Positions 957-12,583 of a DNA stretch of 64,000 bases are shown piece by piece; within the stretch, counting starts at the first letter, position 1; each line of letters begins with the position of its first letter. The translations under genes and the position numbers were made by a program. Origin of the DNA: Acidimicrobiia bacterium. Its GTDB lineage: Bacteria; Actinomycetota; Acidimicrobiia; Acidimicrobiales; Aldehydirespiratoraceae. The notes below the pieces were generated by a model, which worked only from the letters and a program-made list of their open reading frames with translations, did no database searches and had not been told where the DNA came from. Where the stretch lies: NCBI GenBank assembly GCA_024421085.1, contig JAHQYN010000005.1, forward strand, positions 2,368 to 66,367. The letters run 5' to 3'.

Positions 957-2531
957 ATGAACAGCGCCGTGTGGCAGACGATCCCGCAACTCATAGACGA
1001 CGCTGCCCACCGCTTCGGTGAACATGAAGCGATGGTGGACGGCGGCGTCCGCTGGAACTTCTCTGAGTTCCGCTCGCAGATCCACGTAGCGGCGCGTGCG
1101 CTGATGGCCTCGGGGGTGGACCCAGGCGACCGCGTGGCGCTGTGGGCACCCAACATCTGCGAATGGGCCGTGGCCGCGCTCGGGGTGCATGCAGCAGGCG
1201 GGGTAGTGGTACCGATCAACACCCGATTCAAGGGCCGCGAGGCCGCCTACGTGCTCGAGAACTCCGGGGCCGAGATGCTGTTCTGCGTCACCGACTTCCT
1301 TGACACCGACTATGTGGCACTGCTGCAGCAAGCCGGAGTTCCCGAGACGCTGTCGGAGATCGTCGTGATGCGGGGAGCCTGCCCGGCCGGTGCCACCGAC
1401 TACCGCGATTTCATGGCCCGTGCCGCTGCGGTCGACGAGACCGAACGGACCGCCCGCAGCGCCGCGGTCAACGGCGACGACCTCTGCCACATCATGTTCA
1501 CCTCCGGCACCACCGGCGACCCCAAGGGCGCCATGCTGATCCATTCCGCTGTCTGCCGGTCCTATCTGAGCTGGTCCAAGGTGATCGGGCTCGACCGCGA
1601 CCGCTACCTGATCATCAACCCGTTCTTCCACTCTTTCGGGCTCAACGCGGGCATTCTCGCCTGCCTCATGACCGGCTCGACCATCATCCCCCACCCGGTG
1701 TTCGACGTCCCCTCGGTAATGAGGCGCATACCCGAGGAGCGCATCTCGATGCTCCCCGGACCGCCAGCCGTCTACCAGACGATCCTCAACAGCGAGGACC
1801 TCGACCAATGGGACATGTCGTCGCTGCGCCTGGCAGTGACCGGCGCGGCCGCCATCCCCGTGGAGATGATCCTTGCTATGCGCGAGCGGCTCGGCTTCGA
1901 GAAGATCGTCACCGGCTACGGGCTCACCGAATCATCGGGGATCACCACCATGTGCCGACACGACGACGACCCCGAGATCATCGCCCACACCAGCGGCCGG
2001 GCCATCGACGGCGTCGAAGTGCGAATCGTTGACCCGCAGGGCCGAGAGGTGCCGAGAGGCGAGCCGGGCGAGATCGTTGTGCGCGGCTACAACGTGATGA
2101 AGGGCTACCTCAACGACCCGGCCAAGACCACCGAGACGATCGACGCCGACGGCTGGCTGCACACCGGCGACATCGGAGTGATGGACGCTGGCGGCAACAT
2201 CGACGTCACCGACCGGCTCAAGGACATGTTCATCAACGGCGGGTTCAACGCCTACCCGGCCGAGATCGAGAACCTGATGATGAACCATCCAGGAGTCGCA
2301 CAGGTAGCCGTGGTCGGCGTGCCCGACGACCGGCTCGGCGAAGTCGGCCACGCCTTCGTGGTGCCCTCGGTCGGATCCGACCGCGACCCCGAGGAACTGA
2401 TCGCCTGGTGCCGCGGCCAGATGGCCAACTACAAGGTCCCACGACATGTCGAATACGTCGACGCACTCCCCCTCAACGCCAGCGGCAAAGTCCTGAAATA
2501 CCAACTCCGCGAACGCGCCGTGCGGTGCTAG
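957..2531 (+). CDS. Acyl-CoA synthetase, FadD3-like
   Basis: AMP-binding motifs FTSGTTGDPKG, TGYGLTE, WLHTGDIG, LNASGKV; GGFNAYPAEIE as in FadD3-type ligases. Confidence 0.85.
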   Translation: MNSAVWQTIPQLIDDAAHRFGEHEAMVDGGVRWNFSEFRSQIHVAARALMASGVDPGDRVALWAPNICEWAVAALGVHAAGGVVVPINTRFKGREAAYVLENSGAEMLFCVTDFLDTDYVALLQQAGVPETLSEIVVMRGACPAGATDYRDFMARAAAVDETERTARSAAVNGDDLCHIMFTSGTTGDPKGAMLIHSAVCRSYLSWSKVIGLDRDRYLIINPFFHSFGLNAGILACLMTGSTIIPHPVFDVPSVMRRIPEERISMLPGPPAVYQTILNSEDLDQWDMSSLRLAVTGAAAIPVEMILAMRERLGFEKIVTGYGLTESSGITTMCRHDDDPEIIAHTSGRAIDGVEVRIVDPQGREVPRGEPGEIVVRGYNVMKGYLNDPAKTTETIDADGWLHTGDIGVMDAGGNIDVTDRLKDMFINGGFNAYPAEIENLMMNHPGVAQVAVVGVPDDRLGEVGHAFVVPSVGSDRDPEELIAWCRGQMANYKVPRHVEYVDALPLNASGKVLKYQLRERAVRC

Positions 2532-2540
2532 GGTCACGGT

Positions 2541-2687
2541 ATGGGACTCAAGAGATTCATCACGAACCTGCTCAGCCCACCGAACCTGCGCCGGCGTCAA
2601 GCACCCACAGCGCCCAAGTCCAGCGAAGCCTACGCCGAGGAGATCGAGACGGAGAAGGAGCGCCGCAGAGGAATGAGGGGCTTCTAG
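2541..2687 (+). CDS. Putative 48-aa small protein (leaderless)
   Basis: ORF MGLKRFITNLLSPPNLRRRQAPTAPKSSEAYAEEIETEKERRRGMRGF; TAGGGT -10 box 6 nt before the ATG, as at neighbouring known genes. Confidence 0.55.
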   Translation: MGLKRFITNLLSPPNLRRRQAPTAPKSSEAYAEEIETEKERRRGMRGF

Positions 2688-2743
2688 GAGAATGAGGGGC
2701 TGCTGGCTGCTGCCCTCCGGTTGATGAGTCGCATCGAAGAGTC

Positions 2744-3088
2744 TCAACCCCAGCCCATGGTGTGCAGCGATTCGTCGTCGATGCCGAAGTGGTGGGCGAT
2801 CTCATGGATGACGGTGATCTCGACCTCGGCGGCCAGTTCGGTCTCGTCGCTGCACATCTCGCACAACGGCAGCCGGTAGATGCTGATCTTGTCGGGCATC
2901 TCGAAGGCACCGTAGGCCTCCCGCTCGGTGAGCGGCACTCCCTCATAGAGACCCAGCAGGTCTTCGCTGGGGTGCCGGTCCTCGATCACCACCGCAACGT
3001 TGTGCATCATTGCGCCCAGCTCCGCCGGCAGCGCATCGACCACCTCAGCCACCAGATGTTCGAAGCGGCGTGTGCCGACCGGTTCCAC
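2744..3088 (-). CDS. Zincin-like metallopeptidase (DUF1025-type)
   Basis: LLGLYEGVPL...PDKISIYRLPL...TVIHEIAHHFG (HExxH); GTG start 7 nt after TAGCCT. Confidence 0.85.
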   Translation of the reverse strand: MEPVGTRRFEHLVAEVVDALPAELGAMMHNVAVVIEDRHPSEDLLGLYEGVPLTEREAYGAFEMPDKISIYRLPLCEMCSDETELAAEVEITVIHEIAHHFGIDDESLHTMGWG

Positions 3089-3126
3089 CCACCAGAGGCT
3101 AATGGTCGACTCGGTAGGGTGCTGCA

Positions 3127-5124
3127 ATGGTCGCCGACGATCGATCCGAGGACCGCGCCGAGGACCGCGCCGAGGACCGCGCCGACGATCGATCCGAGGA
3201 CCGCGCCGAGGCGTTGCTGGCCGGATTGACTCCAGCGCAGCGCGACGCAGTCACCACGACGGCTTCGCGGCTCTGCATCATCGCCGGCGCCGGCTCGGGC
3301 AAGACCCGGGTGCTGACCCGGCGGGTCGCCTGGCAGTCGGCGCAAGCGAACATCGACCCCCGCCGCGTGCTGGTGCTCACCTTCACCCGGCGGGCCGCGT
3401 CTGAGCTGCGCTCGAGACTGAAGAGTCTGGGAATGCGCGAGGCGATCGCGGCCGGCACCTTCCACTCGGTGGCGTTGGCGCTGCTGAAGCGTTACTGGGA
3501 CCACTGCGACCGACCGCACATGAAACTCCTCCCAAGCCGCTATTCGTTGTTGGCCAAAGCGAATCCTCAGCTCGACACCACAACGGTCGCCGCTATCAAC
3601 ACCGAGATCAGCTGGGCTCGGGCCCGACTGATCACGCCCGAACGCTACGCCGCCGAAGCAACCGAGGCCCGGCGGCGACCTCCGCGCAGCGCCGAGTTCA
3701 CGGCATCGGCCTACGCTGCGTTCCAACAGGCCAAGAACACCCGCAGGCTCATCGACTTCGACGATGTGCTGGCCCTGTGCCACTCCGTGCTGACCAAGCA
3801 GCCGGCTTTCGCCGACGCGCAGCGCTGGTTCTACCGGCATCTGTTCGTCGACGAGTTTCAAGATGTCAATCCGCTGCAGTTCGCGGTCCTGTCGGCCTGG
3901 CTCGGGCCCGAGTCGTCGCTCGCCCTAGTCGGCGACCCAGATCAGGCCATCTACGGCTTCAACGGCGCCGACCCCGACTTCATCCGCCGGGTCGACCGCC
4001 ACTTTCCCGGGATTGCGGTGATGCACCTCCGCACCAACTTCCGGTCGACCCCGGAGGTGCTGTTCGCCGCGGCCCGGGTGCTGAACAGCGAACCTCAACC
4101 CGCCACCCGGGCCTCCGGTGACTGGCCCACGGTGACCGTGACCGAGGGCGACGACGAGGCTTCGGTGCTGGTGCAGGCGATCCGTTCTCGACGCCTCGAG
4201 GGTGCTTCATGGCGGGACCAGGCGGTACTGGCGCGGACAAACGCCCAACTCCCCGCGTTGCGCAAGGCGTTGACTGCGCTGGGCGTACCGACCCGAAGGC
4301 GCGACACCGGCCTGCTGCGACACCCGGAGATCGTCGATCTGTTGAACCGCTGGCACAGCGACACCGCGCTCTCGACGATGTTGACCGACGAGCAGATGCG
4401 TCTGCGGCACGATCGGCCCGTCAACGACCAGACCGTGATTCTCGACGCGTTCATGAGTCTCGCTGCGGACCACCTGACGCTTGAACCCCGGGCCACGATC
4501 GGAGACTTCACCGTCTCGCTGCGCAGCGATGATCGAGTGGGCGAGGCCGTCGATGCCGTGGAGCTCTGCACCTTCCATTCCGCCAAAGGACTGGAATGGC
4601 CGATAGTCCATCTGGTGGGGCTCGAAGACGGGTTGGTCCCCGTCGCCTTCGCGCGTTCGCGCGCCGCCCGCGAGGAGGAGCGGCGACTGCTCTACGTCGC
4701 GGCCACCAGGGCCCGACAGGAACTTCACGTCATGTGGTGTTCCAACCGCGTCGTCGCGAGCAAGCCGATGGAACGCTCCCCCTCACCGTGGTTGGAGGCA
4801 TTCGTCAGCGACAAACCTGCGGACCAGACCCCCACCGGCCCTCCCCGCGAAGTCCTCGACCTGCTCCGACGATTGCGAGACTCGCATTCCGGTGACGACC
4901 CCGCCGAGCGTGCCAGCGAACTACTCACCGATCTGCACCAGTGGCGGAGCGCAGTCGCCCGCGCTGCCAGGATCAAGCCTTCAGCAGTGCTGAAGGACAG
5001 CACACTGCGCCGCATCGCCCAACAGGAGCCGTCGAGCATTTCCGAACTCAGCGCCGTCATCGGCCCCATCATGGCCGATCGATTCGGCCCTCGGCTCCTA
5101 GAGATCATCCATCCCGCAGATTGA
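3127..5124 (+). CDS. uvrD2: ATP-dependent DNA helicase UvrD2-like with C-terminal HRDC domain
   Basis: AGAGSGKT, VDEFQD, VGDPDQAIYGF, TFHSAKGLEW, EERRLLYVAATRA; HRDC-like LHQWRSAVARAARIKPSAVLKD. Confidence 0.9.
   Translation: MVADDRSEDRAEDRAEDRADDRSEDRAEALLAGLTPAQRDAVTTTASRLCIIAGAGSGKTRVLTRRVAWQSAQANIDPRRVLVLTFTRRAASELRSRLKSLGMREAIAAGTFHSVALALLKRYWDHCDRPHMKLLPSRYSLLAKANPQLDTTTVAAINTEISWARARLITPERYAAEATEARRRPPRSAEFTASAYAAFQQAKNTRRLIDFDDVLALCHSVLTKQPAFADAQRWFYRHLFVDEFQDVNPLQFAVLSAWLGPESSLALVGDPDQAIYGFNGADPDFIRRVDRHFPGIAVMHLRTNFRSTPEVLFAAARVLNSEPQPATRASGDWPTVTVTEGDDEASVLVQAIRSRRLEGASWRDQAVLARTNAQLPALRKALTALGVPTRRRDTGLLRHPEIVDLLNRWHSDTALSTMLTDEQMRLRHDRPVNDQTVILDAFMSLAADHLTLEPRATIGDFTVSLRSDDRVGEAVDAVELCTFHSAKGLEWPIVHLVGLEDGLVPVAFARSRAAREEERRLLYVAATRARQELHVMWCSNRVVASKPMERSPSPWLEAFVSDKPADQTPTGPPREVLDLLRRLRDSHSGDDPAERASELLTDLHQWRSAVARAARIKPSAVLKDSTLRRIAQQEPSSISELSAVIGPIMADRFGPRLLEIIHPAD
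3134..3210 (+). repeat. 12-bp coding tandem repeat (EDRA/DDRS) at the UvrD2 N-terminus
   Basis: GAGGACCGCGCC units; protein reads DDRSEDRAEDRAEDRADDRSEDRAE. Confidence 0.85.
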
Positions 5125-7342: not shown

Positions 7343-8125
7343 CTAGCGGCTTCCGTCGATCAGGACCGGGGCGTGGTCGCTCGGCGGGTCGTCCTTGGGG
7401 CCCTTGCGCTCGTTGCGGTCTACTAGGGCCAGCTCGGTGGCGTCGGCGACGGACCGGGAGGTCATCAGCAGATCGATGCGCATTCCCAGCTTCTTGTGGA
7501 AGCTGCCGCCGCGGTAGTCCCACCAGGAGTAGAGGCGCTCATCTTGGTGGTGTTCACGGAACACGTCCACCAGTCCCCAGTCTTGCAGAGCCGCGATTCT
7601 GGCACGTTCAGGTTCGCTGGTGTGGGTCTGCGTCACGAACTCGGCGGGGTCATAGACGTCGCGGTCTTCGGGGGCGATGTTGAAGTCGCCGCAGACGACG
7701 ATGTCGTCGCTGGGCTCGCACTGCCCGTCGAGGTCTCCGACCAGCCGGTCGAGCCAGGCCAGCTTGTACTGGTAGTGGTCGTGGTCGAGCGCCCGTCCGT
7801 TGGGCACGTAGCAGCAGGCCACCCGGACTCCGCCACAGGTCGCCCAGGCGATCCGGGCATCGGCGTCTGCTGGTTTGCCGTCGCCGAATCCGGCGATCGG
7901 GTCGTCTATTCCCAGCCGCGAGAGGATCGCGACGCCGTTCCAGCGCCCCTGCCCATGATGGAAGCTGTCGTAGCCGAGCGCTTCGAAGGTCATCGCCGGG
8001 AACGCCTCGTCGGCCAGTTTGGTCTCCTGAAGGCACAGCACGTCTGGTTCGAACATCTCAAGCCAGCGCTCGACCCGCCCGAGTCGGGCCTTCAACGAGT
8101 TGACATTCCAAGTCGCGATCCGCAC
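7343..8125 (-). CDS. xth: Exodeoxyribonuclease III
   Basis: RIATWNVNS, LCLQETK, YVPNG, CGDFNIAP, YSWWDYR, RIDL, SDHAPV; GTG start 7 nt after TAGGAT. Confidence 0.93.
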   Translation of the reverse strand: MRIATWNVNSLKARLGRVERWLEMFEPDVLCLQETKLADEAFPAMTFEALGYDSFHHGQGRWNGVAILSRLGIDDPIAGFGDGKPADADARIAWATCGGVRVACCYVPNGRALDHDHYQYKLAWLDRLVGDLDGQCEPSDDIVVCGDFNIAPEDRDVYDPAEFVTQTHTSEPERARIAALQDWGLVDVFREHHQDERLYSWWDYRGGSFHKKLGMRIDLLMTSRSVADATELALVDRNERKGPKDDPPSDHAPVLIDGSR

Positions 8126-8155
8126 CCACACGATCCTAGGACACCACGGGGCGCT

Positions 8156-8303
8156 TCGGATCGCGGCCACGCACGAACGCCAGCGAGTGTCGCGCCGGCA
8201 CCGTCCGAAAATGACATCGGATCGCGGCCACGCACGAACGCCAGCGAGTGTCGCGCCGGCACCGTCCGAAAATGACATCGGATCGCGGCCACGCACGAAC
8301 GCC
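8156..8303. repeat. 61-bp tandem repeat, about 2.4 perfect copies
   Basis: TCGGATCGCGGCCACGCACGAACGCCAGCGAGTGTCGCGCCGGCACCGTCCGAAAATGACA at 8156 and 8217, partial at 8278. Confidence 0.95.
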
Positions 8304-8369
8304 GCATTCGGTGCTTGGGCCCTTTGGGGGCCTCGGTGCCGCCGCCGGGGAGGTTCCCGAACCGGGGAT

Positions 8370-8471
8370 TCAGGACTGACCGGCCGGGCCAGCGGCGTCG
8401 AGGCGGGGGCGGTCGCTCCAGAGACGATCGAGCTGATAGAAGTCGCGCTGGGCCGAACCGCACACGTGCAC
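8370..8471 (-). pseudogene. Displaced second copy of the rsfS 3' end (att-like direct repeat)
   Basis: 8397-8471 matches 10246-10320 at 72/75 nt; reads VHVCGSAQRDFYQLDRLWSDRPRLDAAGPAGQS* with its own TGA at 8370-8372. Confidence 0.9.
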
Positions 8472-8519
8472 TCTGTGATGTCACGCTCCTCAAGAGCGGA
8501 CCGTCGCGAGGCTCTTCTT

Positions 8520-9926
8520 TCACTTCGCGGCGCAATGCTGAGCGCCGACAGCGGCGCTCAGGATCCACTCATAGGCGGGTTGGGCATGAACCCCGGTGGG
8601 CACCTCACCGGGCAGACCCCGGTGGTCGAGCGTGAGCAAGGACTGCGATGCAGTCGGGAGCACCTTGCTGGCCGCGACCAAGCCACGCAGCTCCCGAGCG
8701 GCGGTGCTTGCGTCGGTCGCGTCCGCGCACACTTGGATGAGCTCAGCGGTTCCGTCGAGATGGTGTGCCAGGAAGTCGACCTCGTAGCCCTCGGCAGTCT
8801 GGACGTAGGTGATCTCGCTGCCGCGACGCTCCAGTTCGATCAGCACCGCGGTCTCCAGAGCATGGCCCCTATTGGCCCTCCCGTTGCGGTCGTACACACC
8901 GATGAGGCCTGCATCGACCGGGTACGCCTTGCGCGGGTTGACCATCCGCTGCCGTTCCGATGCCGCCTCCATCCAGACCGTTCGCACCAGAAAGCTGTCC
9001 TCGAGCCAGCTCAGATGCTGGTGAACGGTGTCGCGCGCGATCGCGATGCCCTGGGAGCGCAGGGTCCGGTGGAACTTCTCGACGCTGAACATCGCGCCGG
9101 CGTTGGCCAGCAACTGGCGTGCCAGCCAGCGCAGGCCGACCACATTGGTCGCCCCGTGGCGATCGATCACGTCCCTCAGCAGAGCAACATCGACATAGTC
9201 GGTCAGCAAGCGCCGCCGTGTCGCGGTGTCCAGTCCCTGTGCTTCAGGGAAACCGCCGGACTCAAGCCACTCGACGAACGCCGCCTCGACCCGCGCCCGC
9301 TCGATGCGGGACATGTTCGGGGGGGACTCGGGCAGGGCTTCGCCGCGATGCCGCAGCGCCTCGTCGAACCCGAACGGATGCATGAGGACCTGCCACGCCC
9401 TGCCCCGCAACTCGGTAGCGATCTCGCGTGACAGCAACGCTGCCGAGGAGCCCGACACGAACACCTCCGCGCCTTCGGCATCGAGCAGGCGCCGCACGAG
9501 CCGCTCCCAGCCCGCCACGGTCTGGATCTCGTCAAGGAACCAGCAAACCGGTGCATGTGTACCCGAAGACGTCGTGGCTCGATAGCGATCGGTGTACTCG
9601 TCGATCAACGCACCCAGCGTCGCTGCACCGAGCCCCACCAGACGCTCGTCTTCGAACGAGACGAAGGGAAGACACTCGGCCGGGACTCCTGTCGAGATTC
9701 GCTCAGAGCGCAGCTGGTGCAGAAATGTCGTCTTGCCCGCCCGGCGAATGCCGATCACGGCTGTGGCCTTGCCAGCGAACGCCGTTGGCCCGACGACGCG
9801 ACGCGGCGTGAACAAGGGGGGGCTGCGCACCTCCTCCAGCCGGGCGAAGAAGGTGTGTCGCAGCTGCGGCGAGGGTGCATCCGAGCCTGCCGTGCGCTCC
9901 CAGTTGTCGTTCGCCGATGGCGTCAT
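8520..9926 (-). CDS. AAA+ ATPase with DUF4143-type C-terminal domain (COG1373-like)
   Basis: Walker A GIRRAGKT, Walker B WFLDEIQ, SGSSA, GGFPE, KAYPVDAG, LETAV, EVDF, IQVC. Confidence 0.9.
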   Translation of the reverse strand: MTPSANDNWERTAGSDAPSPQLRHTFFARLEEVRSPPLFTPRRVVGPTAFAGKATAVIGIRRAGKTTFLHQLRSERISTGVPAECLPFVSFEDERLVGLGAATLGALIDEYTDRYRATTSSGTHAPVCWFLDEIQTVAGWERLVRRLLDAEGAEVFVSGSSAALLSREIATELRGRAWQVLMHPFGFDEALRHRGEALPESPPNMSRIERARVEAAFVEWLESGGFPEAQGLDTATRRRLLTDYVDVALLRDVIDRHGATNVVGLRWLARQLLANAGAMFSVEKFHRTLRSQGIAIARDTVHQHLSWLEDSFLVRTVWMEAASERQRMVNPRKAYPVDAGLIGVYDRNGRANRGHALETAVLIELERRGSEITYVQTAEGYEVDFLAHHLDGTAELIQVCADATDASTAARELRGLVAASKVLPTASQSLLTLDHRGLPGEVPTGVHAQPAYEWILSAAVGAQHCAAK

Positions 9927-9937
9927 GGCGTATTCTC

Positions 9938-9994
9938 TCCTTGTCAGAAGGAAAGTTTACTATCAATTTCTCCTTCTTAAAAGGAGAAATTGAT
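9938..9994. promoter_or_regulatory. Tandem operator-like palindromes over the ATPase promoter
   Basis: Perfect 14-bp inverted repeat ATCAATTTCTCCTT-N5-AAGGAGAAATTGAT (9962-9994) and a second TCCTT-N5-AAGGA core (9938-9952) 33 bp away; TAAACT -10 candidate on the minus strand between them. Confidence 0.7.
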
Positions 9995-10212
9995 GGCGGT
10001 GCCGGGCCCTCTGAATCCGGCTTCCGCTTCGTTGGCTGTAGTCGTCGAGCTACCCACCCGTCCACAGGCTGCCGATGATGCCGAGTGTGGTGGGGTGCTG
10101 AGGTAACCGTTGGGGTGGCCGTGCAGACGAGAAACTCGTCCTGCGTGGCGGGGGCAGTTGTTCGGGGGTGGGTCCGGGTGTGGGTCCGGGTGTGGAGCTG
10201 TCGGACTTGAGT

Positions 10213-10596
10213 TCAGGAGGGATCTAGCGGTTGGGTGGGGGTCCAGTCGAGGCGGGGGCGGTCGCTCCAGAGACGCTCGAGCTGATAGAAGTCGCGCTGG
10301 GCCGAACCGAAAACGTGCACCACGAACGCGCCGTAGTCCATCAGCACCCACTCGCGCTCCTGTTTGCCCTCGACCCGCAGCGGTGCAGGTCCGCCGGCGA
10401 GCTTCAGCTCGTGCTCGATCGCATCGACGACCGCATGGACCTGACGGGGATTGGCTGCGCTGGTGATCACGCAATGATCGGTCACCGCAAGCACATCGCC
10501 CACATCGATGATCAGCGTGTCTGTCGCCTTCTTGTCGTCGGCGACGGCCGCGGCCAAGCGGACCCACCTGAGTCGGTCCTGGCCGCTTCGGCTCAC
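10213..10596 (-). CDS. rsfS: Ribosome silencing factor RsfS
   Basis: DKKATD..IDV, VITSAANPRQV, WVLMDYG..VVHVF...RDFYQLERLW; downstream of nadD. Confidence 0.93.
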   Translation of the reverse strand: MSRSGQDRLRWVRLAAAVADDKKATDTLIIDVGDVLAVTDHCVITSAANPRQVHAVVDAIEHELKLAGGPAPLRVEGKQEREWVLMDYGAFVVHVFGSAQRDFYQLERLWSDRPRLDWTPTQPLDPS

Positions 10597-11966
10597 GAGC
10601 CTGCCCAGTCCCAGCCGACGGTGACGGTGAGGTCTGCTGGTGAGTCAACGTCTTCGACGAACGTCGTCGATGCCCCGATCGCATCAGCCAGGGCGGTCGC
10701 CGCCTGCCGGTGGTCGGCGAGGTGGTAGGCCACCGTCGTCTCCTCCACCCCGAACACCGCAGCATTGCCGAGCACGGTGATCTCCGCGCCTGCATCGACG
10801 AGCAGCGGCAGCATCTGGTCTCCCAACCCGGCGCCGGTGCCGTCGAGCAGGCTCACCGAAGGGCGCGCGCCGAGATGCGAACCGACCGGCAGCGGCACCA
10901 TCTCGCGAGCCAGTCGCTTCAACTGGACCTTCTGCTCCTCGTTGAGGGCGAAGAACGGAGGATCTTCGCCTCCGAACGACACCGCCACAACAGCCAGAAC
11001 CTCCAATCGTCGAGACCCCGTGCCCAACGCACGCAGATACGCCGACAACCCGTCGTCGAACGGCAGCGTCGCGGCGACAAGGTCATCGGCGGTGCCCACA
11101 CGGGAGAGCCAAGCCTCCCACAGATCGGCCTGACGCTGCGTGCGGTTCGAGTCGAACTCGCCCTCGTTGAGCCAGCCGTAGACCTCCGCGGCCCGCGCTC
11201 CGCTCAACTGCTGGAACCCGGCCCGATACTCCGTCTCCACGAGACCTCCGGCGCCGACCGAGACGAGGTCGTCGTCGAGAACGACCGGCAGCGGCTCGAC
11301 TAGGCGCAGCCAGCCCCCCAGTTGCGAGGTCGTGATCTCCAAGGTCTCCCTGAATCCGAACCCGAAGACGTCGCCCACCAGCCTGCTCAGGCCTTCCATC
11401 CCCGCCGCCTCATAGACCTCGCCGACGAACACCGCGTCAGCGGGATCGTCGCTGGGCTCGAGGAGGGTCTCGGCGCTGAGCAGCACAGCGGTTCCACCCT
11501 GATCAAGCGCGGTACGAGCCAGGACCGTGATTCCGACCAGGTCGCCACCGTCGCTGAGATGGGCGACCAACATGGTCGGCGTGGGATCGACGAACGCCTG
11601 GTATCCCGGTGCTGTTGGGTCGGTGATCGTCTCGCGCCGCTCACCATTGTTGGAGTCGAGCACCAGCTTGGTTCCTTCCCGCCACACCGCGAACACCAGT
11701 GCCGCAACCGCCACCACCAACAACGGAAACACCAGACCCCAGAAGGGATGCGGACCCGGTGCCGGCCGCTTGCCGCCGACGCGACCCGCGCGGCTCGGTT
11801 CGGGCCGCTCCACCGTCGCGGCGCGCGGCCCCGAATCCAGATCCGCCGTGGCAGCACGCGGCCGCGAAACCCGCTCCGCCGTCGCAGCACGCGGCCCAGA
11901 ATCCCGATCCGCCGTCGCGGCGCGCGGCCCAGAATCCCGATCCGCCGTTGCGTCGGCGGTGTTCAC
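10593..11966 (-). CDS. LytR-CpsA-Psr-like membrane protein with LytR_C domain
   Basis: Single TM helix, RTQRQ motif, C-terminal VSLLDGTG...GNA...DLTVTVGWD; GTGA overlap with the nadD stop. Confidence 0.7.
   Translation of the reverse strand: MNTADATADRDSGPRAATADRDSGPRAATAERVSRPRAATADLDSGPRAATVERPEPSRAGRVGGKRPAPGPHPFWGLVFPLLVVAVAALVFAVWREGTKLVLDSNNGERRETITDPTAPGYQAFVDPTPTMLVAHLSDGGDLVGITVLARTALDQGGTAVLLSAETLLEPSDDPADAVFVGEVYEAAGMEGLSRLVGDVFGFGFRETLEITTSQLGGWLRLVEPLPVVLDDDLVSVGAGGLVETEYRAGFQQLSGARAAEVYGWLNEGEFDSNRTQRQADLWEAWLSRVGTADDLVAATLPFDDGLSAYLRALGTGSRRLEVLAVVAVSFGGEDPPFFALNEEQKVQLKRLAREMVPLPVGSHLGARPSVSLLDGTGAGLGDQMLPLLVDAGAEITVLGNAAVFGVEETTVAYHLADHRQAATALADAIGASTTFVEDVDSPADLTVTVGWDWAGS
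11809..11948 (-). repeat. 33-bp coding tandem repeat (about 4 x AATADRDSGPR)
   Basis: TCC(G/A)CCGT recurs at 11809, 11842, 11875, 11908 and 11941. Confidence 0.85.
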
Positions 11967-12583
11967 CGAGGACTCCCGTAGAGCCCGTTGGAGCGCACAT
12001 AGTCGATCACCGGAGTCGGCAGGAGTCCCAGCACGGGCCGACCGTTGCGGAAGCGGTTGCGAACGTCTGTCGAGGAGACCTCCAAGGCAGGTGCCTCGAC
12101 CACGACGTGCTCCCAGCCCGGTGGAGGTCGGCCCCCGACGCTTCCCGCACGTTCTGCCACAACTGTGGTCGCCAGTCGCTGAACCTCCTCGGGGCGCTCC
12201 CAAGTGTCGAGGCTCGCCGCGACATCGGAGCCCACGACGACGAACAGGTCGGTACCGCCGGTCTGTGCGTCCAGCGCGGCGAGCGTGTCGGCGGTGCAGG
12301 TCCGTCCACCGCGCCGGATCTCGTGATCGCTCGCCTCCAGCACAGACGCGCCGATCGTCTCGTTGGCCGCCGCCACCGCGGCGCGGACCATCTCGAAGCG
12401 GAACCTCGCAGGCGTCACGGAGTTGAAGACAGTCTTCTGCCAAGGATCATTGGCGACGACCAGCAGCATCCGGTCGAGCTCGAGCCGGTGCCGCACTTCC
12501 AAGGCGACCGCCAGATGACCGGAATGGACTGGGTCGAACGTTCCACCGAACACCCCGACCCGCTGCGGTGTATGCTCCTCCAC
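11963..12583 (-). CDS. nadD: Nicotinate-nucleotide adenylyltransferase
   Basis: GVFGGTFDPVHSGH, PWQK, VVGSD, VSSTDVR. Confidence 0.95.
   Translation of the reverse strand: MEEHTPQRVGVFGGTFDPVHSGHLAVALEVRHRLELDRMLLVVANDPWQKTVFNSVTPARFRFEMVRAAVAAANETIGASVLEASDHEIRRGGRTCTADTLAALDAQTGGTDLFVVVGSDVAASLDTWERPEEVQRLATTVVAERAGSVGGRPPPGWEHVVVEAPALEVSSTDVRNRFRNGRPVLGLLPTPVIDYVRSNGLYGSPR

Follow-up and report, generated by a model that had tools for sequence, protein, structure and literature searches.

In a 64,000-nucleotide stretch of a genome assigned to an Acidimicrobiia bacterium (contig JAHQYN010000005.1 of assembly GCA_024421085.1; hereafter the window), a single gene for an AAA_14/DUF4143 ATPase of the candidate defense family PDC-S01 lies behind an intact copy of rsfS, and a 75-bp piece of rsfS is present a second time on the far side of that gene. 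We favor the explanation that an acquired one-gene cassette inserted 31 bp behind intact rsfS with a long duplication of its target and that the spare copy of the target was later truncated where this DNA joins xth, a reading to which we give slightly less than even likelihood. All genes at the locus are on the minus strand, in the order LytR_C protein, rsfS, an AT-rich stretch with palindromes, the ATPase, a spacer, the 75-nt copy with eight unrelated codons ending in a stop, a 61-bp tandem repeat, and xth.

A repeat search of the window returned a two-copy family of 75-nt direct repeats (8397-8471 and 10246-10320), identical at 72 of 75 positions (96%) and spaced 1849 apart, as an initial annotation of this DNA had reported. 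Its statement that both copies are rsfS coding sequence, each continuing in frame to a stop of its own, was borne out by translation. The intact gene ends in RPRLDWTPTQPLDPS and the fragment reads VHVCGSAQRDFYQLDRLWSDRPRLDAAGPAGQS, each followed by a stop; set side by side, the spare copy gives VHVCGSAQRDFYQLDRLWSDRPRLD followed by AAGPAGQS and the resident gene VHVFGSAQRDFYQLERLWSDRPRLD followed by WTPTQPLDPS. The repeats had also been described as enclosing only the ATPase and its promoter. They do enclose the ATPase (8520-9926) and an AT-rich promoter, together with the last 11 codons and stop of rsfS and 31 bp of native intergenic DNA, so that 10182-10245 is native sequence. No other copy of the 75-nt sequence occurs in the 3.55-Mb assembly, where region 8100-10260 likewise has no match elsewhere. 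A 455-nt rsfS probe recovered the second repeat copy in this genome by BLAST at an E value of 1.5e-28; with the same probe, no second copy resembling 8397-8471 was found in 40 relatives, 17 of them of the same genus. The ATPase is thus flanked by repeats of more than 30 bp, the length by which Furuta et al. (2010) define a long target duplication.

Such a layout could be produced by stitching two strain variants of the rsfS end into one contig, and the source is a metagenome-assembled genome in 241 contigs, 90.5% complete, in which the two repeat copies have exact words of 30 and 33 nt in common. However, the right edge of the spare copy (8471/8472) enters unique DNA after an exact match of only 8 nt, and independent runs reproduce both edges: unitigs of run X2 span 8274-8460 and 8431-10261, and one of run X5 spans 8274-8444, all with no other letters. 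Run X9 holds a relative at 95-98% identity with the same gene order, in a 972-nt contig that passes from xth through the odd tail into the spare copy and a 2029-nt contig that runs from the spare copy across the ATPase gene to rsfS. The 8397-8471 copy therefore has both of its edges represented outside the source assembly, the unitigs supporting it where the initial annotation had left its reality to the reads. The study codes of X2 and X5 differ from that of the possible source run, although studies of the same year and habitat may represent one campaign. In contigs of X10 and X11, the spare copy is followed by 301 other letters and then by the end of the ATPase gene, and the exact 33-nt repeat word had no match in metagenome contigs. 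Contigs from other sponge metagenome runs contain the repeat too, and because the same arrangement recurs in X2, X5, X9, X10, and X11, the layout is real and predates the split of the sampled strains. An assembly artifact is already largely refuted, and we consider it very improbable.

The initial annotation proposed that the unit exchanges the C-terminus of RsfS. We read the rsfS ends of 29 relatives, 17 of the same genus and 12 more distant. The nearest relative, G001 (84% DNA identity), has the tail WTPTQPLDPS, the same as the intact gene of the window. RsfS matches TIGR00090 at 1.2e-28 (99.1 bits; cut-off, 56.9), and its residues 28-127 (100 aligned, tail included) are 92% identical to G001. 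A tryptophan directly follows R(L/V)(D/E) in 17/17 same-genus genomes and follows the repeat in most of the 12 more distant relatives as well; 14 of the 17 congeners carry a tail of the W(T/V)..P..P type. DNA homology between the window and G001 continues for 31 bp beyond the rsfS stop, to 10182 (30/31), and then ends. Because the tail is identical in G001, the tryptophan is invariant in the genus, and the homology extends past the stop, the tail appears to be native, and by these alignments intact RsfS keeps its own C-terminus with nothing swapped. The AAGPAGQS tail shows no relation to the 17 native tails, since its best local score against them was reached by 206 of 500 dinucleotide shuffles. 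With a native tail on the intact gene, an unrelated one on the distal copy, and no recombinase between or beside the repeats, the attL/attR geometry with a replacement tail that had been suggested does not hold. Nor was the proposed empty site, rsfS ending in AAGPAGQS next to xth, found: it is absent from all 17 same-genus genomes, no AAGPAGQS tail occurs in the rsfS loci of the 40 relatives, and the check extended to the xth loci of the five nearest. In two congeners (L015 in G016 and L035 in G008), the RsfS tail is deleted and the frame enters the 3' end of a convergent tRNA-Ala, ending as WAGSGAKGN and WS, respectively; the tail after the conserved tryptophan is therefore dispensable.

The spare copy derives from the rsfS of this lineage. 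It shares with the resident gene two codon states seen in no relative (the Ala of SAQ is encoded by GCC and the Ser of WSD by AGC), and it is 96% identical to the resident copy versus 78-92% to relatives. The copies differ at three sites. One difference is a synonymous substitution in the resident gene, with the ancestral GTG retained in the spare copy. Another, TTC to TGC (F to C), is found in the spare copy only. At a Glu codon, both copies differ from the GAA of the relatives, with only the GAT of the spare copy altering the residue (E to D). This pattern is as expected for a decaying dead copy beside a selected gene, which the spare copy would accordingly appear to be. At either end of the 75 bp, homology breaks off abruptly. 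A separate rsfS fragment exists in the genus: a 115-bp piece from the middle of the gene, 85% identical to that of the window, adjoins an HNH-type endonuclease gene in three genomes (L075 in G013, 3990-4130; L076 in G015; L078 in G011). Two of the species share the 8.1-kb segment carrying it at 99.3% identity, and the third has it at 95%; the segment looks like a recently transferred element with a stray rsfS fragment.

Sequence comparisons further suggest that the ATPase gene was acquired horizontally and is foreign to the genus. None of the 17 congeners has an orthologue, homologues of 64-70% identity occur in 7 of 39 genomes of another genus of the family, and the best homologues (78-83% amino acid identity) in the species collection are in records titled as other sponge-symbiont Acidimicrobiales metagenome-assembled genomes. 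In the unit, the only open reading frame with a family match is the ATPase itself, and no recombinase was found in or beside it, small open reading frames not all having been scanned; the description of the unit as recombinase-less, single-gene, and foreign to the genus thus stands. DNA similarity to homologues is restricted to 8546-9992, that is, the coding sequence with 66 bp upstream and its two conserved palindromes. Given this restriction, what travels would be a self-contained promoter-plus-gene unit of about 1.45 kb.

The unit lies exactly at a break in synteny. A search of the 1.4 kb behind rsfS in 29 loci did not find xth, and in the five nearest relatives it is 0.3-2.5 Mb from rsfS or on another contig. 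Upstream-region alignment showed that homology to the xth loci of relatives ends at 8139/8140, 14 bp upstream of the likely GTG start, so xth has lost its native upstream and promoter region. Within the window, the part that lacks a counterpart in relatives is 8140-10181. The gene that is the divergent neighbor of xth in relatives lies in the middle of contig C165 in this genome, and the other side of C165 maps to a third place in relatives; because the contig continues into a block that maps elsewhere, several rearrangements must have occurred.

The site behind rsfS is a hotspot of gene turnover and rearrangement that differs in most species of the genus. By comparison among congeners, the ancestral neighbor was a convergent tRNA-Ala(GGC), found there intact in 7/17 and as a 3' fragment only in 2/17. 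In the other eight, rsfS is followed by a ROK regulator, a class-III aminotransferase, an SDR, an ABC permease, a DDE transposase, a nucleotidyltransferase, or proteins without a family. The tRNA-Ala gene is 8.9 kb from rsfS in G001 and near the end of contig C103 in the genome of the window. In the two genomes with fragments (L028 in G002, about 1990-3362; L020 in G010), the last 12-17 bases of tRNA-Ala(GGC) are left beside rsfS. In G002, the full tRNA gene follows after another 1.3 kb, on the far side of an rve-type transposase gene, an insertion into the tRNA 3' end with duplication of that end.

Under the explanation that we favor, the cassette, consisting of promoter and ATPase, would have entered at 10181/10182. 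With native DNA enclosed by the repeats, the duplication must at first have exceeded its present length, and we infer that at least 139 bp (10182-10320) would have been duplicated, the spare copy originally also carrying the tail and stop. A rearrangement joining this DNA to xth would then have cut the spare copy after 75 bp and removed its tail and stop, and unrelated DNA would have taken the place of the lost tail, by chance giving the AAGPAGQS reading. The inserting enzyme could be the ATPase/nuclease-like protein of the cassette itself or host break repair. This two-step form agrees with all of the data. We prefer this account because the pair of copies frames this single foreign gene and no other and because the second event that it requires is independently visible as a synteny break at that very place.

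Several observations weigh against insertion with a long duplication. A single-copy target joining both present flanks, the defining test of such an insertion, exists in 0/17 genomes. The simple version, with a 75-bp target, is contradicted, since the native tail and 31 bp lie inside the "insert" and no empty site joins the flanks; a second event, truncation, is consequently needed, to which the synteny break alone points. Neither a circle joint nor an empty-site joint appeared in contigs of X2, X3, X5, X9, X10, and X11, in which rare forms would be invisible; one X10 joint that "goes back 1819," considered as a circle, proved to be the spare copy mapping on the resident copy. The ATPase itself is a doubtful source of cutting activity, given that its third nuclease motif reads Q-x-C and not E-x-K. 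The expectation that other DUF4143 genes in this genome would be bracketed by duplicated gene ends also fared poorly: 3 of 13 places were flagged, namely the window, C24, and C152. The C24 bracket is weak (54 bp at 76%, between two tandem paralogues), and that of C152 (159 bp, 97.5%), which might have been a host target duplication, is actually an array of a deleted paralogue, a complete ATPase gene (ATPase-1), and a full paralogue. For the ATPase subfamily of the window, we counted close bracketing repeats with a tolerance of 500 bp and with shifted positions as controls. They were not enriched in genome records (2/68 loci versus 6/347 controls), in metagenome contigs (0/49 loci versus 0/143 controls), or in total (2/117 loci versus 6/490 controls), and six loci of another genus (g5) have no framing repeat of at least 25 nt. 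Of the two positives, L123 repeats the 3' end of a neighboring paralogue and L083 an intergenic stretch in an array of three ATPases; L082 versus L083, tried as a clean insertion, turned out to be a substitution. The missing enrichment does not refute insertion, as old insertions would lose their repeats, and it is the reason that we keep our confidence below one half.

Two other accounts of the same DNA have to be weighed against this one. The 75-bp copy could be a by-product of the join to the xth block, made when break repair or template switching copied a stretch of rsfS along with the filler 8140-8396. The copy does lie exactly between synteny blocks, with homology to relatives ending at 8139 and at 10182; the third block in C165 bears witness to repeated rearrangement, the junction DNA has no source in the assembly, and both the sharp ends of the 75-bp homology and the lack of enrichment in the subfamily fit such an origin. 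It has to accept as coincidence, however, that the gene from which the piece was copied lies across the cassette, so that the two copies frame a single foreign gene, with margins of 48 bp and 319 bp, and no microhomology is evident in the sequence at the junctions. We regard this origin as possible, if somewhat unlikely.

Alternatively, as the initial annotation proposed, a circle of about 1.85 kb that carried the ATPase and an rsfS tag (the 75 bp, the canonical tail, and downstream DNA) could have integrated by a single crossover into a host rsfS that formerly ended in AAGPAGQS beside xth, the element restoring or replacing the tail. The order of full gene, imported tail, cassette, partial copy, and other tail fits Campbell-type geometry, and the repeat spacing is compatible with a small circle. 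Moreover, 60-nt windows over the tail and the 31 bp reach 90-95% identity to G001 versus 85% over the 1.6-kb alignment, which would fit import; the rsfS 3' region in general, however, reaches 90-95%, and the tail is no outlier in it. Under this model, the odd tail would have to belong to the host and the canonical tail with its 31 bp to have been imported. The host RsfS would then have to lack a tryptophan found in all 17 congeners and in most of the distant relatives, and rsfS would have to adjoin xth, as it does in none of the 17. Relatives of the cassette carry no rsfS tag, their homology stopping at 8546 and 9992 in 160 loci. The circular junction that had been proposed as a check was among the joints missing from the six runs, which is weak evidence. 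Taken together, these points make integration of a circle improbable, and insertion accompanied by a long target duplication followed by truncation is the explanation that we carry forward.

Related genes show mobility on the scale of single genes. In this genome, the short contigs C152 (L009), C45 (L081), and C24 carry DUF4143 genes as pairs or arrays of distant paralogues; on C152, an internally deleted paralogue is accompanied by the complete ATPase, which points the opposite way, and by the beginning of a full paralogue, and C45 is a 95% variant without the deleted copy. The ATPase-1 cassette (C152:570-1905) has counterparts of 89-92% identity in G003 (two copies), G015, and G017, with homology only over 1.33-1.47 kb around the gene, whereas the rsfS region of these three genomes is just 78-81% identical to that of the window; single genes of this family therefore move between species of the genus. 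In G015 (L057), the gene is part of a 2.5-kb, two-gene insert that has on one side an SDR gene, located downstream of tRNA-Arg, and on the other a housekeeping gene. The site is empty in G012, G013, G014, and G001, and the insert has no framing repeat. Among 19 loci of the paralogue family, framing repeats occur at L058, L064, and L065. At L058 (G017:C1:1632869-1637201), two direct copies of about 2.5 kb, 84-88% identical and encoding a repeat-rich protein, flank a 1.49-kb ATPase-1 cassette, an arrangement that would fit a tandem paralogue array or else a very long target duplication. In a neighboring genus, DUF4143 genes are framed by repeats of 30 bp (29/30; L065, 1344-1373 and 2801-2830) and 39 bp (82%; L064, 1320-1358 and 2700-2738).

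The ATPase of the window is a full-length member of its family by model searches. It matches the PADLOC model PDLC04787 for PDC-S01 over residues 54-457 of 468 and exceeds the Pfam cut-offs for PF13173 and PF13635; a PDB sequence search returned no match. Walker A (G-K-T) is conserved in 79/80 homologues and Walker B (D-E) in 79-80/80, and the window protein has GKT and DE. In the DUF4143 domain, sequence alignment alone indicates conservation of E358, E382, and D384, and of Q-x-C (Q in 79/80, C in 75/80) at the place where a paralogue has the E-x-K of PD-(D/E)XK nucleases; at residues 395-400, the subfamily keeps E-L-I-Q-V-C in many phyla where paralogues have E-x-K. DUF4143 is among the PD-(D/E)XK families in the accessible part of one listing (PMC3424549). 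From family membership, the gene is predicted to sense or cut foreign DNA in an ATP-driven manner. In the accessible text of one paper, PDC-S01 is one of the commonest single-gene candidates, found through embedding in defense loci, and validation is pending for most of the defense candidates (PMC12988326); in the available part of a preprint, the PDC-S01 representative is outside the four of eight candidates that protected against T7, T5, and T4 (bioRxiv 10.1101/2024.09.26.614923). Our literature searches found no report of DUF4143 mobility, no printed report of rsfS as an attachment site, and none of a gene-end-duplication pattern for the PDC-S01/DUF4143 family. A broader proposal would be that PDC-S01 genes are one-gene mobile elements that insert by gene ends and duplicate tens to hundreds of target bases without a recombinase of a known type, the window holding an old, partly eroded copy whose footprint is kept in several strains, and that insertion is carried out by the ATPase itself, with its variant nuclease-like domain, whether in addition to or in place of phage defense; we think this unlikely to be correct.

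Coordinates of the features are collected in Table 1. The region 9927-9994 upstream of the ATPase gene contains one 14-nt perfect palindrome (arms 9962-9975 and 9981-9994) and, in addition, another palindrome, which includes the ribosome-binding site. At the end of the G001 homology, ACACCCGGACCC occurs as a 12-bp tandem copy (10170-10193), so that the last 12 bp of the 187-bp segment (about 10170-10181) repeat native sequence; one unit is missing in X9 and X10 contigs, which leave out 12 letters at 10168. Strains differ elsewhere as well. The spacer 8472-8519 has about 171 extra letters in X9, and X10 and X11 have their 301 letters in place of 31. Because X9 has 35 other letters for 8182-8277, in the area of the 61-bp repeat, amplification of that repeat appears to be recent and strain specific, and the repeat may carry the promoter that now drives xth. 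A scan of 8000-10700 for consensus promoters and terminators gave no sites, and an Rfam search gave nothing near the gathering score. Family searches identified the neighbors of the unit as xth, rsfS, the LytR_C protein, and nadD. The LytR_C gene contains 33-bp tandem repeats (11805-11969; four overlapping 66-nt copies, 70-100%), the number of which is strain variable, since an X9 contig skips 150 bases there (11783-11934, with 15 other letters).

Table 1. Features at the rsfS-xth junction of the window, in order of position
Feature	Position	Strand	Evidence or remark
xth (exodeoxyribonuclease III)	7343..8125	-	TIGR00633 5e-74, Pfam Exo_endo_phos; likely start GTG 8125-8123
Junction DNA, xth block to spare rsfS piece	8140..8396	.	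Without match in relatives or rest of assembly
61-bp perfect tandem repeat, 2.4 copies	8156-8303	.	100% identity, directly upstream of xth
8-codon tail and stop after spare copy	8373-8396	-	Unrelated to native tails; within junction DNA
Apparent spare dead copy, 25 codons of rsfS 3' part (repeat copy 1)	8397..8471	-	Unitigs X2, X5, X9 cover both edges
48-bp spacer, spare copy to ATPase stop	8472..8519	.	Length strain variable
AAA_14 + DUF4143 ATPase, 468 aa, PDC-S01	8520..9926	-	Pfam 4.5e-26 and 4.1e-14; PDLC04787 4.8e-88
AT-rich promoter/operator of cassette	9927..9994	-	Kept in closest homologues (alignment)
187 bp between cassette and native DNA	9995..10181	.	Outside G001 and homologue matches
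Native intergenic DNA behind rsfS stop, 31 bp	10182..10212	-	30/31 versus G001; G001 homology ends here
Intact rsfS, 127 aa, native tail WTPTQPLDPS	10213..10596	-	Pfam RsfS 8.7e-30; TIGR00090; repeat copy 2 = 10246-10320

PDC-S01 is reportedly among the commonest prokaryotic candidate defense genes, and an account of how such a gene arrives would explain its embedding in other loci. If our explanation is true, PDC-S01 would join the restriction-modification genes, for which insertion with long target duplication has been described to date. The window is a modest, eroded case, and its main value is a correction: RsfS is not remodeled, and the odd second tail would be junction DNA at a point of rearrangement. 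As a side effect, xth, without a promoter region of its own, would depend on foreign upstream DNA.

Among known systems, the cargo most closely resembles the PDC-S01 (AAA_14 + DUF4143; COG1373) candidates, with a full-length model match and the same two-domain layout; unlike the candidates described, in the accessible text, as embedded in defense loci, it stands behind a housekeeping gene, and it has Q-x-C where relatives have E-x-K. The site recalls tRNA-adjacent island hotspots in that the DNA between rsfS and the convergent tRNA-Ala(GGC) is replaced species by species and tRNA 3' fragments remain in two genomes, whereas the tRNA gene of this genome is on C103, no tRNA fragment or integrase is near the cassette, and the repeat is rsfS rather than tRNA. 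Campbell-type integration shares with the window a direct duplication of a common segment around an insert without an element-encoded recombinase; in that process, however, the distal copy should hold the host tail, whereas here the distal tail is unlike all native tails and the proximal one is native. The nearest parallel is provided by restriction-modification units without a recombinase. As described in the accessible part of Furuta, Abe & Kobayashi 2010 (PMC2853133, citing Nobusato et al. 2000), long target duplications of more than 30 bp, from tens to hundreds of base pairs, overlap gene ends around such units. The window differs from what is stated there in that its cargo is a single ATPase gene, no genome offers an empty site with both flanks, and native DNA lies inside the repeats. 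It agrees in being a short, recombinase-less, defense-type unit between repeats of more than 30 bp (here 75) that consist of host DNA over a gene 3' end and are unique in the genome. On this comparison, the window would be a further, eroded member of the pattern known for restriction-modification genes.

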